The notes under the pieces: model-generated
What the model was told of the DNA's origin: nothing
Seen by the model: the letters and a program-made list of their open reading frames with translations, nothing else
Databases searched by the model: none
Shown here: in pieces, positions 3,758 through 44,196 of the stretch
How positions within the stretch are numbered: the first letter of the stretch is position 1
How the letters are laid out: each line of letters opens with the position of its first letter
Translations under genes and position numbers: made by a program
NCBI GenBank assembly: GCA_943348755.1
Contig: CALQYS010000004.1
Coordinates: 1-59,099 of the forward strand
Reading direction: 5' to 3'
Length of the DNA stretch: 59,099 nucleotides
From: Candidatus Nomurabacteria bacterium
GTDB taxonomy: Bacteria; Patescibacteriota; Minisyncoccia; Phycocordibacterales; UBA9973

Positions 3758-4750
3758 ATGAGATTTAAATTCTTATCATTATATTTAAACACGGGACTTT
3801 TGATATTTATGGTGGTAAGTTTGATTTTCGGATCAAGGGCTCTTGCCTCCTCTACTGACATATTGGTCAATGTGGTGCCCCCAAATCCAGCTCCATATGA
3901 GAACGTAAATATAACTTTAAACAGTTATGTGAATAATTTGGATACCGTTATGATATCTTGGTCTGTAGATGGCAAAACAGTCGCATCTGGGACCGGCAAA
4001 AAATCATTTTCCACTACAGCACCTGCAGCAGGTGGAGAGATGGGTGTCGTAGCCACCATATATCTGCCAGACGGCACAATAGAAACAAAAATACCAATAA
4101 AACCTTCTGTGATGATACTACTTTGGCAAGCGAATGATTCATACGTACCACCTTTTTATAAGGGTAAGGCTTTGCCAACACCAGACAGTGAAGTAAAAGT
4201 GGTGGCAATGCCTGAAATAAGAACGGGGTCGGGTTTAGCTGATAGCAAAAATATGACTTACTATTGGAAAAAGGACTATACTAACAACGTAGATGGTTCC
4301 GGCTATGGTAAGAATTCTTTTACTTATGTGAATGATTATTTAGAAGATTCAAACAATATATCTGTGACAGCATGGACAGTGGACCAAAAATATTCATCGC
4401 AAGCCAGTATAGACATAGGGACAACAGAGCCAAAAATATTATTTTACAAAAATAGCGGCAGTATGGGGACAATTTTAGAAAAGACACTTATGGATGGACA
4501 CAGAATTGAGGGTAGTGAAATAGTGGAAGCAGTGCCTTATTTTATTTCACCAAAAGAAATACAAAATCCAGCATTGATATGGAGCTGGTTCATAAATGAC
4601 AGCAGAGTAAGCTTGACCAGCTTCAAGAAAAATTTAATGCCGCTTAAAGTACAGAGTGGGGTTTCTGGAACATCCCAATTAAGATTGGAAATAAGAAATC
4701 AAGATAAAATTTTCCAGACAACAAGTAAAGAAATAAGTGTAGAGTTTTAA
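3758..4750 (+). CDS. secreted or membrane-anchored hypothetical protein
   Basis: N-terminal hydrophobic segment LLIFMVVSLIFGSRALA followed by a beta-rich sequence. Confidence 0.5.
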   Translation: MRFKFLSLYLNTGLLIFMVVSLIFGSRALASSTDILVNVVPPNPAPYENVNITLNSYVNNLDTVMISWSVDGKTVASGTGKKSFSTTAPAAGGEMGVVATIYLPDGTIETKIPIKPSVMILLWQANDSYVPPFYKGKALPTPDSEVKVVAMPEIRTGSGLADSKNMTYYWKKDYTNNVDGSGYGKNSFTYVNDYLEDSNNISVTAWTVDQKYSSQASIDIGTTEPKILFYKNSGSMGTILEKTLMDGHRIEGSEIVEAVPYFISPKEIQNPALIWSWFINDSRVSLTSFKKNLMPLKVQSGVSGTSQLRLEIRNQDKIFQTTSKEISVEF

Positions 4751-41319: not shown

Positions 41320-41560
41320 GCTTTTATTGTACAGTAATATGGACATTACAGTGATTGACAAAAAGCACTAATAGGTGTATAATTTAAAGATAAGTTCTTT
41401 TAAATTGCGATTTCGCCATAGCAGAAAGTAGCTTGATTTAGTTACGCTATTCTCTGCTACGGCGAAACACTTAATTCTTCAACAATCTTTGGCGGGCTCA
41501 ATTTTAATTGGGGCGTACAAAGAATGAGGAAAAAAGTGCGTTAACCCGCAGTAAACTAAC

Positions 41561-42322
41561 ATGAGCACTAACACACAGGCTGCGATGGTGGCGATCCTTC
41601 AAGGGGTTAACCTGAATGACTCGCGCATGGACACACAAACGCTTCAAGCAATTGTTGATGCGCAAAAGCAAGGTCGGCTCAAGGGCCCTTTAACGGACTG
41701 GTTCGCCACGCAACAGTGGAATCAGGGCAAGTTCTCTGCCCGCGCCAAGTTCGTCGTCAACACTGGTTCCAAAGCGAAAGTGAAGATCTCATGTCTGGGA
41801 GACAACTTCCAGGCATGGCATCTTAGTTCCGTCGAGGAGTATATCCCGACGGAAGAACTCACCTACTTCATCTTGGAAAACGCCATGGATGACAGTGAAA
41901 TCATCGCCAAGCTTGGCGGTGTCGCCAAGTCTATCACCTCGCTCGGCGAGATTTACCTCAGGATGGAGCATCAGCCGCACGGGCCGAAAAGCCCCGCCGG
42001 CGATATGCTCACTGATGGTTCCGCCAACATCTTCTACGTGCCTCAGGCCGTGGATAAGGTGGATGACAACCATTTCAGTTACGTCGGTTCCGACGGCCAG
42101 ACCACCAAGATCATCCACGAGGAGTTGAAAGACTCCCAATGCCTCTTCAAGGTCGGTGATCAGTGGTTCGTGCTCCGCGCGGTCCGCGTCTTCTGGCATG
42201 TCGACGGTTGGTACGTCCTTGCCTTCTCCGTTGAGTTTCCGTACGGTTGGTATGCCGGCTCTCGGGTGTTCTCTCGCAATTCACTCAAATCCTCAGTTCC
42301 TCAGGAAAAAGCTGTAAGCTGA
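41561..42322 (+). CDS. DGR target (variable) protein
   Basis: 253-aa ORF, visibly GC-richer than its neighbours. The C-terminal approx 38 codons form the VR. Confidence 0.8.
   Translation: MSTNTQAAMVAILQGVNLNDSRMDTQTLQAIVDAQKQGRLKGPLTDWFATQQWNQGKFSARAKFVVNTGSKAKVKISCLGDNFQAWHLSSVEEYIPTEELTYFILENAMDDSEIIAKLGGVAKSITSLGEIYLRMEHQPHGPKSPAGDMLTDGSANIFYVPQAVDKVDDNHFSYVGSDGQTTKIIHEELKDSQCLFKVGDQWFVLRAVRVFWHVDGWYVLAFSVEFPYGWYAGSRVFSRNSLKSSVPQEKAVS
42167..42279 (+). repeat. DGR variable region (VR)
   Basis: Aligns without gaps to 42657-42769. By my count all 20 mismatches fall where the template has A. Confidence 0.85.
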
Positions 42323-42344
42323 TCCTTGGAAACTGGGAAACTTT

Positions 42345-42385
42345 GACACTTTGTTCGCTTCGGCGGGCCGAGTGTCTTTTGTTTT
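42345..42385 (+). terminator. hairpin plus T-run downstream of the DGR target gene
   Basis: GACACT...CGC-TTCG-GCG...AGTGTC followed by TTTTGTTTT. Confidence 0.5.
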
Positions 42386-42656
42386 AAATTACTAATTTAG
42401 TATAATCTTTTCAAATCATGCATTACACGATGGTTACGGCTCTTGTGTCATGGTTTCAAGAAATTTTTTATGAGAGTTGTGTCGGACCCAGTGTTTTTTA
42501 TCTTACACAAGAGTATAAATATTTTCTTCAAAAAATAACAATAATTGGTGCATGAGACTGGTGGATTTTTAGGTCTTAAATAAAATACAGCACGATCTTT
42601 TATATTAATGTGTTCAGATCGGCAGTGGCACTGATGGTCTCATGTACGATAACGCT

Positions 42657-42769
42657 TTCGTGCTCCGCGCGGTCAACGTCAACTGGAATGACGACGGTTG
42701 GAACGTCAATGCCAACTCCGTTGAGAATCCGAACAGTTGGAATGCCGGCAATCAGGTGTTCTCTCGAAA
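42657..42769 (+). repeat. DGR template region (TR)
   Basis: Adenine-rich copy of the VR (many AAC/AAT codons in the VR frame), 490 bp downstream of the VR. Confidence 0.85.
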
Positions 42770-42785
42770 CTATTGTTTTTCTCCT

Positions 42786-43163
42786 CTACGAGCGTGGAGG
42801 AGTTTTCTTTTCCAGTCCTTTCTTCCAGCCCCCAAGCATTCTGCCGATCTCATCTAAGTGTCCTGAAAGGGTAGAGTATTTTTCATTTGGAACACATTTA
42901 TTTTCCCATGCTATCTGTAGAAAGAATTTAATACCATCAAGTTTAGAGATTGCTATGACGAGCCGAGGTATTTTGGTTTCCGGCGGGAGATAAATCGAGA
43001 TAAATATGTTTTCTAAAAGACCGAGAAAATAATCTTCTATTTTTCCTCCCAAAACATAGCGATGAGCCTTTGGGAAATCATTATATATTTTAAACCAAAA
43101 AGAGTAGGCGGTTTTTGTTTTTAGAAGCGCTGAAGGCGCTGTGGGGGGGGGTCCGGGAATCAT
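42786..43163 (-). CDS. avd: Avd-like four-helix-bundle protein (23S rRNA intervening-sequence protein family)
   Basis: KTAYSFWFKIYNDFPKAHRYVLGGKIED ... LDEIGRMLGGW pattern. About 125 aa, adjacent to TR and RT. Confidence 0.7.
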   Translation of the reverse strand: MIPGPPPTAPSALLKTKTAYSFWFKIYNDFPKAHRYVLGGKIEDYFLGLLENIFISIYLPPETKIPRLVIAISKLDGIKFFLQIAWENKCVPNEKYSTLSGHLDEIGRMLGGWKKGLEKKTPPRS

Positions 43164-44196
43164 GAAACAATTTATTCATACATACGATACTATCATAACC
43201 ATAGAAAAACTGCTTAAGGCTTGGCAGGAATTTTTGCGTGACAAGAAAAACAGAAAAGATGTGATACTTTTTCAAGCTAGATTGATGGATAATATATTTG
43301 ATCTCTTTAATGACTTAAAAAACAAAACTTACAAACATGATGGATACTTCGCTTTTAACATATCCGACCCGAAACCGAGACAAATACACAAGGCGACCGT
43401 CCGGGATAGGCTCCTTCATCATTTGATATATCAAGAACTATACGAATATTTTGATACTAAATTTATTTTTGATTCTTACTCCTGCCGAATAGACAAAGGC
43501 ACCCACAAAGCCATAGACAGATTCCGATATTTCTTCCGTAAAGTCTCCAAAAACAATACAAAAACGTGTTTTGTCTTAAAATGCGACATCAGAAAATTCT
43601 TTGCGAATATTGACCATGCCATCTTAAAGAAAATACTATCAAAGGGCACCTTTGACACAGATACGCTTTGGCTATTAGAGCAGGTGATAGACAGCTTTTC
43701 TAGTAACCCCATAGGCAAGACCTATGGGGTACAGCCAAATGTTACAAACTCTGCTATCGCAGAAAATGTAACAAAAGGTTTACCACTAGGGAATCTCACT
43801 TCTCAGCTTTTGGTAAATATCTACATGAATGAATTTGATCATTTTATGAAAAGAGAGCTGAAAGTGAAATATTACATAAGATACGCGGATGATTTTGTTA
43901 TATTAAGCGATAGTAAAGATTATCTTGAAGAATTACTGCCAAAGATTTCTTTGTTTCTGAGCGAAAATTTAAAACTATCTCTGCATCCCGATAAGGTTTT
44001 CATTAAGACTTTTGCCTCGGGTGTAGATTTCTTGGGTTGGGTGCATTTTCCAGAGCATCGAGTTTTGCGGACGAGCACCAAAAGGAGAATGATGAAGAAT
44101 ATAAGCAAAGATTCGAAACCAGAAACTATACAATCGTATCTAGGGTTAATTAAGCATGGGAATGGGTATAAATTAGGAGAAAAGATAAAAAGTTGA
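43162..44196 (+). CDS. DGR-type reverse transcriptase
   Basis: LPLGNLTSQLLVNIYM (I/LGxxxSQ motif) and IRYADDFVIL. The ATG at 43162 is preferred over the GTG at 43141. Confidence 0.9.
   Translation: MKQFIHTYDTIITIEKLLKAWQEFLRDKKNRKDVILFQARLMDNIFDLFNDLKNKTYKHDGYFAFNISDPKPRQIHKATVRDRLLHHLIYQELYEYFDTKFIFDSYSCRIDKGTHKAIDRFRYFFRKVSKNNTKTCFVLKCDIRKFFANIDHAILKKILSKGTFDTDTLWLLEQVIDSFSSNPIGKTYGVQPNVTNSAIAENVTKGLPLGNLTSQLLVNIYMNEFDHFMKRELKVKYYIRYADDFVILSDSKDYLEELLPKISLFLSENLKLSLHPDKVFIKTFASGVDFLGWVHFPEHRVLRTSTKRRMMKNISKDSKPETIQSYLGLIKHGNGYKLGEKIKS

Follow-up and report, generated by a model that had tools for sequence, protein, structure and literature searches.

Why does the chromosome of a Candidatus Nomurabacteria bacterium carry, next to a reverse transcriptase (RT) gene, a second copy of the end of a small neighbouring gene, and why do the differences between the two copies all fall on one kind of base? 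The locus lies at positions 41,561 to 44,196 of what we call the window: the 59,099 nt of contig CALQYS010000004.1 (assembly GCA_943348755.1) that were analysed here and to which all coordinates refer. Our answer is that it is almost certainly a complete chromosomal diversity-generating retroelement (DGR) of the Patescibacteria, or candidate phyla radiation (CPR), lineage. A single small protein has 15 codons at its end rewritten by the element, whose repeats and genes are arranged as follows:

41561 to 42322, forward strand: target (variable-protein) gene, 253 aa, member of a large unannotated Patescibacteria family
42167 to 42279, forward strand: variable repeat (VR), with mutagenised positions from 42185 to 42264
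42657 to 42769, forward strand: template repeat (TR), with 28 adenines and an IMH*-like end, GGTGTTCTCTCGAAAC (42755-42770), the counterpart of the VR end
42786 to 43163, reverse strand: avd accessory gene, 125 aa, Pfam bAvd, convergent with the TR
43162 to 44196, forward strand: DGR reverse transcriptase gene, 344 aa counted from the ATG at 43162, with an in-frame GTG at 43141 and the motifs LPLGNLTSQ and YADD

The strongest evidence is the pattern of differences between the two repeats. In the computed, ungapped alignment, VR and TR are 82% identical over 113 nt at an offset of 490 nt, and they differ at 20 positions, every one of which is an adenine in the TR. Of the 28 TR adenines, 20 are changed in the VR (12 to T, 5 to C and 3 to G) and 8 are retained; all 85 non-A positions are the same in both repeats. 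Were 20 mismatches scattered at random, they would all hit an A with a probability of 3.9e-16 (hypergeometric). A preliminary description of this DNA, made from the letters alone, had claimed a gapless 113-nt copy at 490 bp, mismatches at TR adenines only, and a TR full of AAC and AAT codons; the computed alignment bears out the first two claims, and the third agrees with the codon count given below. An independent repeat search of the sequence returned the same pair as its top family. The homology ends on the 3' side at 42280 with the first non-A difference (T in the VR, C in the TR) and on the 5' side at 42166.

The reading frame shows how these differences bear on the protein. The VR forms the last ~38 codons before a 14-codon tail of the target open reading frame (ORF), and 19 of the 20 mismatches fall on codon position 1 or 2. 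Read in the VR frame, the TR holds 10 AAY codons together with GAC (twice), GAG, AGT and CAG. No stop codon can be reached from it by any A-to-N change, and up to 5.9e14 protein variants can. The window contains no further VR-like copy on either strand and no second member of the target family.

One of the 20 mismatches needs a different explanation. It belongs to the conserved end of the repeat, which is followed, beyond the stop codon of the target gene, by a hairpin:

42265 to 42280, forward strand: IMH-like VR end, GGTGTTCTCTCGCAAT, with C at 42277 and T at 42280 against the TR end, differences that are fixed family-wide
42345 to 42385, forward strand: conserved 14-bp hairpin with a UUCG loop (hairpin proper 42345-42376), then a T-run, 3' of the target stop

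At 42277 the TR reads CGA and the VR reads CGC. Across the family, VRs end in TCYCGCAAY in 59 of 77 targets and TRs in TCYCGAAAC in 30 of 40. Because the two kinds of end differ at this position family-wide, we take the 42277 mismatch to be a fixed VR/TR (IMH/IMH*-like) difference and not a random outcome, which leaves 19 mismatches attributable to mutagenesis. The earlier tally of 20 adenine-site mismatches was thus right in number and position, and one too high as a count of mutagenesis events. By analogy with the Bordetella IMH (PMC5758913), the VR end may serve in homing, and a similar part can be envisaged for the hairpin downstream. This hairpin is preceded by a conserved CTTTGAC motif, with a CTTTGACCC-like motif in 48 of 77 targets, and it is found 3' of DGR-adjacent and remote targets alike; it may serve as a terminator, in target recognition, or in both ways.

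The enzyme encoded next to the repeats is of the DGR type. The RT matches Pfam RVT_1 (2.4e-24), and its best match among PDB sequences (phmmer) is chain A of 8ub7, the Bordetella phage DGR RT (bRT), at 126.8 bits (E 1.2e-35), as against ~50 bits for group II intron and retron-type RTs (group II E 2e-12). The LGNLTSQ and YADD motifs read earlier from the letters are present in the translation and in the PDB alignment, in which LPLGNLTSQ pairs with IPIGSLTSQ of bRT and YADD with YMDD. LPLGNLTSQ is of the I/LGxxxSQ type, which in DGR RTs stands where group II intron RTs have QG. Residues L209, Q215 and D243/D244 align with I181, Q187 and D215/D216 of bRT; the bRT paper gives I181 and Q187 as residues that touch the incoming nucleotide, and counts D215/D216 among the catalytic aspartates. 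The NCBIfam models for other RT classes stay below their cut-offs (group_II_RT_mat 134.8 against 300; retron_St85_RT 52.4 against 235). On this comparison of scores, the proposal that this RT is neither a group II intron nor a retron enzyme holds. At the RNA level, Rfam finds neither a group II intron RNA nor a retron RNA in the window, and the RNA adjacent to the RT gene, unlike the msr/msd of a retron, holds a TR whose A-mutagenised copy lies in a gene. With adenine-only TR/VR differences, a DGR-type RT, a VR placed in a gene with AAY design and an Avd, the locus carries features by which DGRs are recognised.

The accessory protein had been described as an Avd-like four-helix-bundle product, and its score against Pfam bAvd (52.3 bits, cut-off 40, 9e-14) supports this assignment. 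Its gene keeps its minus-strand position in the relatives. The ATGs of avd and of the RT gene, which point in opposite directions, overlap in the palindrome CATG at 43161-43164. With the starts overlapping here and mostly 0-40 nt apart in relatives, there is no intergenic room for divergent promoters; consequently, either the two genes harbour each other's promoters, or RT expression depends on read-through from the TR RNA.

Is this arrangement peculiar to one genome? Among 85 related loci that we fetched, about 40 show the same gene order, namely target (+), TR (+), avd (-) and RT (+), with near-constant spacings: 304-344 nt from target stop to TR, mostly 0-22 nt from TR to avd stop, and mostly 0-40 nt between the avd and RT starts. 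Most of these complete loci have adenine-only or adenine-dominated VR/TR mismatches. The remaining half consists of remote targets, for which no RT lies within 6 kb. In genomes of relatives, several paralogous targets stand on contigs other than that of the cassette. When such remote VRs are compared with the single TR of the same genome assembly, mismatches fall on adenines in 16 of 17, 23 of 29 and 14 of 17 cases, which indicates that one cassette serves several paralogues. The genome from which the window comes may likewise hold further targets outside the 59 kb. The remote targets compared in this way were L016, L051, L053 and L076, set against the cassettes of L023, L049 and L044; L076 is more diverged and may be decaying.

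The layout fits what has been published for this lineage. According to its main text, the survey of Wu et al. (2018) assigns 90% of CPR DGRs to architecture B3 (PMC5758913), and on that description the layout of our element matches B3. Roux et al. (2021) describe, again in the main text, a Patescibacteria-restricted DGR clade 2 that is cell-encoded and whose targets have no recognisable domain or transmembrane segment, and they find DGRs to be significantly commoner in CPR/Patescibacteria than in most other lineages (PMC8144416). Our element shares with the CPR B3 or 'unknown VR' elements of Wu et al. and with clade 2 the Patescibacteria host, the combination of avd, TR and RT, and an order and orientation that depart from the prototype. 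With clade 2 it further shares a domainless target without a transmembrane segment and its cellular location, and nothing contradicts membership. The suggestion that this is a CPR-type DGR is thus upheld by the Patescibacteria relatives and by the gene order reported in the main text of PMC5758913.

What distinguishes these loci is the spacer between the target stop and the TR, which is strongly conserved at near-constant length and holds, in this order, the hairpin already described, a -10 box and a structured leader. Together with a second hairpin beyond the TR, the elements are:

42401 to 42406, forward strand: -10 box TATAAT (TGnTATAMT in relatives), just 5' of P0, with invariant T/A positions in alignment columns 12-21
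42412 to 42656, forward strand: structured leader RNA, ~245 nt, seven helices, directly 5' of the TR
42413-20/42449-56, forward strand: helix P0, the outer helix, which encloses P1; added by eye
42425-34/42439-48, forward strand: helix P1
42467-71/42515-19, forward strand: helix P2a
42477-86/42501-10, forward strand: helix P2b
42548-59/42636-47, forward strand: helix P3, 12 bp, long-range, its 3' strand ending ~10 nt before the TR
42563-66/42573-76, forward strand: helix P4
42590-94/42619-23, forward strand: helix P5
42781 to 42811, forward strand: 9-bp hairpin with a tetraloop, then TTTTCTTTT; 12 nt 3' of the TR, with an overlap into the final codons of avd, and a match in the terminator scan

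The case for the leader structure is comparative. On an alignment of 38 loci, RNAalifold predicts 44 pairs, 35 of them with compensatory changes; in the full structure, P0 included, 43 of 52 pairs have compensatory changes on both sides. Of the cells in the alignment that should pair, 95.3% do so, against 41-50% when the partners are slid by 1-3 columns, and double changes are found in 326 cells, a number that none of 500 shuffles attains (97 +/- 11 in the shuffled data). By nhmmer, each of the 40 TR loci has exactly one copy of the leader (40/40), as has the window (181 bits). Most remote targets have no leader; seven loci without a detected TR carry complete or partial copies, some of them at contig ends or degraded-looking. 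The -10 box just upstream is, from its sequence and position, probably the promoter of the DGR RNA. A 45-aa ORF called within the leader on the European Nucleotide Archive (ENA) contig, at 42418-42555, is rejected as a gene: in most relatives it stops after 1-13 codons.

Has this RNA been seen before? At curated thresholds, Rfam has no family for the leader in the window or in the 12 related loci that were scanned with it. At permissive thresholds, the family RF03080 (RT-9) gives full-length, plus-strand matches at the same place of the leader in three loci: 26.7 bits in the window (42423-42546), 30.4 in L034 and 30.3 in L049. The shared elements are a hairpin capped by GGUUACGGCU, followed by CAUG, GAGAGUU, an inserted hairpin and AAAcACA..AAcAAug. 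The leader differs from RT-9 in being ~2.7 times longer, in having P0 enclose P1, and in carrying P3-P5 on the 3' side of the RT-9-like part. Judged from its sequence, the leader is related to RT-9 and lies outside it by Rfam's own criterion. RT-9 is one of 19 motifs found near RT genes by Weinberg et al. (2017), whose main text assigns it no function and links only RT-10 to a DGR (PMC5737381); in the papers searched we found no link from RT-9 to DGRs. The leader RNA, the terminator-like hairpin and the compositional anomaly of the target described below go unmentioned in the main texts of PMC5758913 and PMC8144416; as far as those main texts reach, the leader is an RNA component undescribed so far for these DGRs. 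Our loci offer a likely biological context for the orphan motif RT-9.

If the locus is a DGR, is it still at work? Several observations weigh against a complete and working element. A second, independent assembly (ENA, 6,886 nt) is 100% identical to the window, VR included; the 90% protein cluster of the target has a single member; and a search of JGI metagenome contigs for VR variants, with the TR carrying N at its adenines as query, gave 0 matches. The Avd reaches 63.5 against the cut-off of 80 of the NCBIfam model DivGenRetAVD (1.9e-17) and has no PDB sequence match, and no C-type lectin fold, the one scaffold established to date for the variable regions of DGRs, can be detected in the target. 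The activity-related points are what one would see if the locus were a DGR by descent and now an inactive fossil, its VR written once or a few times and then fixed. We consider this unlikely, and give it more weight than any other alternative. It would account for the identical VR in two assemblies and for the want of a variant protein in a collection of 5.8 billion proteins as well as in the JGI contigs, and three clusters of relatives (P0021, P0018 and P0103) have static VRs too. The state of the parts speaks the other way: RT and avd are full-length ORFs, the catalytic YADD is in place, the seven leader helices are all preserved (181 bits), the TR keeps its 28 adenines in the AAY design, and the VR is in frame. 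Since the parts are intact and the VR has not drifted from the TR at any non-adenine position, we argue for recent copying at this locus. Close relatives, moreover, do vary in nature: within the clusters P0029 and P0091, the sequences agree everywhere except in the VR, where 10-14 positions differ, from which we conclude that the DGR family is active.

How would a DGR with its structured RNA on this side of the template work? What is known of priming, processivity and termination on DGR RNA all comes from one phage element, BPP-1 of Bordetella, with its scaffold downstream of the template. There, the making of complementary DNA (cDNA) requires 20 nt of RNA upstream of the TR and, downstream, a 140-nt spacer (Sp). 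From the spacer come the priming adenosine, a stem-loop bound by Avd, and one of the two strands of a stop duplex whose other strand is the upstream segment. For the locus described here, we envisage that its own promoter would give an RNA of ~400 nt, about 42412-42811, and that RT and Avd would bind the folded leader together with the 3' hairpin. The TR would then be copied into cDNA with misincorporation opposite adenines, polymerisation probably being halted by P3, the 12-bp helix ~10 nt 5' of the TR. Finally, the cDNA would replace the VR, with targeting by the fixed VR end GGTGTTCTCTCGCAAT and perhaps also by the hairpin after the gene. The 3' hairpin, which is conserved with stem covariation in all TR loci, may act as the intrinsic terminator of the DGR RNA, as the counterpart of the Avd-binding stem-loop, or as both, as its U-run and the comparison with BPP-1 suggest.

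The comparison with BPP-1 (mtd-avd-TR-brt) brings out both the kinship and the rearrangement. The two elements share adenine-specific TR/VR differences at AAY codons, a VR at the 3' end of the target ORF, an Avd, and RTs of the same clade with I/LGxxxSQ and YxDD motifs. In both, too, VR end and TR end differ in a fixed manner (IMH against IMH*), hairpins are located downstream of the VR and immediately 3' of the TR, and a ~12-bp duplex is located just upstream of the TR. However, the large RNA lies 5' of the TR here (~245 nt, seven helices), whereas the 140-nt spacer of BPP-1 lies 3'. P3 is formed by two upstream segments, in contrast to the BPP-1 duplex of upstream and downstream RNA; the 3' hairpin is followed by a U-run, and avd is inverted. 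The hairpin after the VR sits ~66 nt downstream, in BPP-1 only a few nt. Last, our element is chromosomal and resides in a cell instead of a phage, and its target is a small protein without a detectable C-type lectin fold or tail-fibre context.

From these likenesses and differences we arrive at a proposal that we hold to be possible and would not yet call probable: a permuted ribonucleoprotein in which a 5', RT-9-related leader takes the place of the 3' spacer as the scaffold for RT and Avd, with P3 as the stop, a terminator-like 3' hairpin and a mode of priming unlike that at Sp-A56. Such a machine would serve a very large, strongly promoted, GC-rich and cytoplasmic target family of at least 3,878 clusters at 50% identity, whose variable residues would lie on a beta-sheet of a fold not found in the PDB. 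Whatever its fate in detail, the locus and its 40 relatives define a compact, testable module of promoter, seven-helix leader, TR and hairpin, with the scaffold apparently upstream, and provide a concrete construct for reconstituting a CPR DGR.

Some findings tell against the RNA side of our reading. The minimum-free-energy fold of the single sequence differs from the comparative structure (z = -2.2), and the RT-9 matches fall under the Rfam gathering score of 46.1. Conservation and analogy are the basis for what we say of the promoter, of where the RNA begins and ends, of its termination and priming site, and of the parts played by P3 and the hairpin, and the RNA downstream of the TR, antisense to avd, may have a role of its own, in a stretch that is also under coding constraint. 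A covariation search for a duplex between leader and TR or between leader and 3' hairpin gave promiscuous G-rich pairings only, which we distrust, and we make no claim for a priming site.

The leader could also stand outside the reverse-transcription machinery, as a cis-regulatory 5' untranslated region (UTR), a riboswitch-like element or a separate small RNA that governs how the TR RNA or the RT is expressed, with the true scaffold downstream and antisense to avd, which we regard as a fairly remote prospect. In its favour, the essential Sp of BPP-1 lies 3' of the TR and only 20 nt are needed upstream, the region past the 3' hairpin is well conserved at the nucleotide level, and RT-9, in the main text of PMC5737381, has no assigned function. 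That conservation, however, is explained by the coding of the Avd C-terminus on the other strand, and the hairpin and U-run right after the TR look like the end of a transcript. The leader, moreover, goes one-to-one with TRs in all 40 loci, at a fixed spacing into the TR, and is mostly missing from remote targets, even though the seven loci without a detected TR keep copies.

An ordinary partial duplication or pseudogene fragment beside an unrelated RT (of a retron, a group II intron or a defence system) can practically be dismissed: records do name the RT homologues 'retron-type' or 'group II intron', and there are weak NCBIfam matches to Drt2, Drt3a and retron RTs, but all of these are far under their cut-offs, the window has no group II or retron RNA by Rfam, the best structural relative is a DGR RT, and the concentration of all 20 mismatches on a single base in one of the copies (P 4e-16) is a pattern that recurs in dozens of loci.

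The labels in public records deserve a comment of their own. The RT has at least 8,000 protein matches with E <= 1e-20, and those with names are called 'retron-type reverse transcriptase', 'group II intron reverse transcriptase domain-containing protein' or 'reverse transcriptase/maturase'; among the matches listed, none of the named homologues is labelled a DGR RT. For the homologues of this RT, the 'retron-type' and 'group II intron' labels are misleading, and the RT should carry neither in annotation. Compared with the Bordetella phage RT, the enzyme has an insertion of ~29 residues just before LGNLTSQ, at residues ~176-204 (43687-43773), beginning IDSFSSNPIGKTYGVQPNVTNSAIAENVT.

What, then, is the protein that is being diversified? 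The 253-aa product has no match in Pfam or NCBIfam and no PDB sequence match. In the collection of 5.8 billion proteins it has 133 homologues, all unnamed or 'hypothetical', and those with a taxon are Patescibacteria. The family as a whole comprises at least 3,878 clusters at 50% identity (E <= 0.001), 1,013 of them at E <= 1e-30. Records name the relatives mostly as metagenome-assembled genomes of Paceibacteria, Nomurabacteria, Taylorbacteria and other Patescibacteria, many as 'uncultured Saccharibacteria', and a few under other phyla. Species-representative genomes contain 194 relatives, as against 1 weak partial match in 2.9 million viral contigs (IMG/VR), so we take the family to be cellular rather than viral; a scan of IMG/VR with the leader motif gave 27 matches, all chance, without support from nhmmer or tblastn. 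The target sequence has no obvious signal peptide or membrane segment, and the protein is small and cytoplasmic-looking. The domain also occurs in tandem, with five matched stretches in P0121 (926 aa) and two in P0122 (379 aa).

The family alignment ties the target directly to the template. Its conserved core ends in VLRAVxVxWxxxGWxVxAxSVxxPxxWxxGxxVFSRNS, in which the positions marked x coincide exactly with the TR codons that contain adenine. Just before the VR, the window protein has a 38-aa insertion that it has in common only with its closest relatives. The AlphaFold2 (AF2) model of the window protein is confident in the core (pLDDT 84, pTM 0.75); that of a short family member, built on a 105-sequence alignment, reaches pLDDT 86, with most of the core above 95. 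In these models, the variable residues alternate along two adjacent predicted beta-strands.

Is it a C-type lectin? C-type lectin VRs end in IGFR, with which the G-x-x-V-F-S-R of the target can be compared. The known variable proteins with this fold, Mtd, TvpA, AvpA and TaqVP, resemble our target in their C-terminal VR and in a similar spacing logic (W-x3-A ... P ... G-x-x-V-F-S-R). The preliminary description had proposed to compare the folded C-terminus of the target with such proteins, and the outcome is mixed. A minimal C-type lectin domain would agree with the order of elements in the C-terminal half of the models: a strand, two helices and four strands. At E <= 0.001, however, Foldseek finds no match for either model in the PDB or for the first model in BFVD, and the family profile matches no PDB chain and none of the Pfam FGE-sulfatase/lectin families, permissive thresholds included. 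The weak Foldseek match that recurs for both models is a human C-type lectin, 3whd (TM score 0.34-0.36, the best reached, E > 1); solved DGR variable proteins are absent from the Foldseek matches listed. The low similarity, the missing profile match and the placement of variable residues on two predicted beta-strands set the target apart from Mtd, TvpA, AvpA and TaqVP. As far as the models go, the target may be either a very divergent C-type lectin fold variant or a different scaffold. Divergent variants were anticipated for CPR targets in the main text of Roux et al. (PMC8144416). Flagging this very large unannotated family as DGR targets has a further use, as its fold could test the view that DGR variable regions are always C-type lectins.

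How is such a target expressed, and where does it come from? Its upstream region carries one further element:

41355 to 41383, forward strand: sigma-70 promoter upstream of the target gene, TTGACA-17-TATAAT, 12 of 12 consensus positions, giving a 5' UTR of ~170 nt

The target ATG lies ~180 nt downstream of this perfect consensus promoter, and similar TTGACA-N17-TGTATAAT promoters stand upstream of the target homologues in at least 49 of 86 related loci. Strong consensus promoters of this kind suggest high expression of the targets. The 5' UTR itself contains a hairpin at 41415-41463, with arms GCCATAGCAGA and TCTGCTACGGC, which to the eye seems to covary in a few relatives.

The composition of the target is unusual. 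With a GC content of 0.54 and a GC content at third codon positions (GC3) of 0.68, it has the highest GC3 of the 46 ORFs of at least 150 aa in the window (median 0.34), compared with 0.38 for the RT. The same holds for the family: without their VRs, the targets have a median GC of 0.53 and GC3 of 0.69, the RTs 0.38 and 0.40, at a background GC of 0.43. In 28 of 30 DGR loci, and for 38 of 40 remote targets, the GC of the target lies above the background. The GC of the RTs follows that of the host (r = 0.89); that of the targets does not track it (r = 0.34). Two explanations fall short. Adenine-specific erosion by off-target reverse transcription does not account for the high GC, because the depletion at third codon positions affects T (0.18 in the target, 0.33 in the RT) as well as A (0.14 against 0.24); a one-off horizontal transfer cannot be the sole cause, because the excess is family-wide and does not track host GC. 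Although the strong promoters suggest high expression, the ribosomal and cold-shock genes in the window do not have this bias.

As for origin, the closest complete DGR is that of L058, whose RT shares 75% and whose Avd shares 86% identity with their window counterparts. At the nucleotide level, homology to L058 (76%) begins exactly at the VR (42170) and runs through leader, TR, avd and RT to 44164, and a second homologous block of 57 nt, 41374-41430, lies in the 5' region of the target. Between these blocks, the body of the target is unrelated at the DNA level and 37% identical as protein. Its best relative is instead P0002 (L002-L005), a remote target with 59% identity and the same 38-aa insertion. 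P0002 sits between map and ndk, beside a ribosomal protein/secY cluster, in a GC-rich (0.58) genome; it has no TR, avd or RT within 8 kb, and it keeps the VR-end sequence and the conserved downstream hairpin. Since homology to L058 flanks an unrelated body whose best relative is a remote target in a GC-rich genome, the target looks chimeric, with a body exchanged upstream of the VR, as far as such events can be read from sequence. The nearest relative of the RT, P0281 (86% identity), comes from contigs that end inside avd and so carry no target information. Among the related loci, L046 has a LOOT RNA (RF03000, 82 bits) at 4250-4380, ~1.4 kb upstream of its target, where its presence is probably coincidental.

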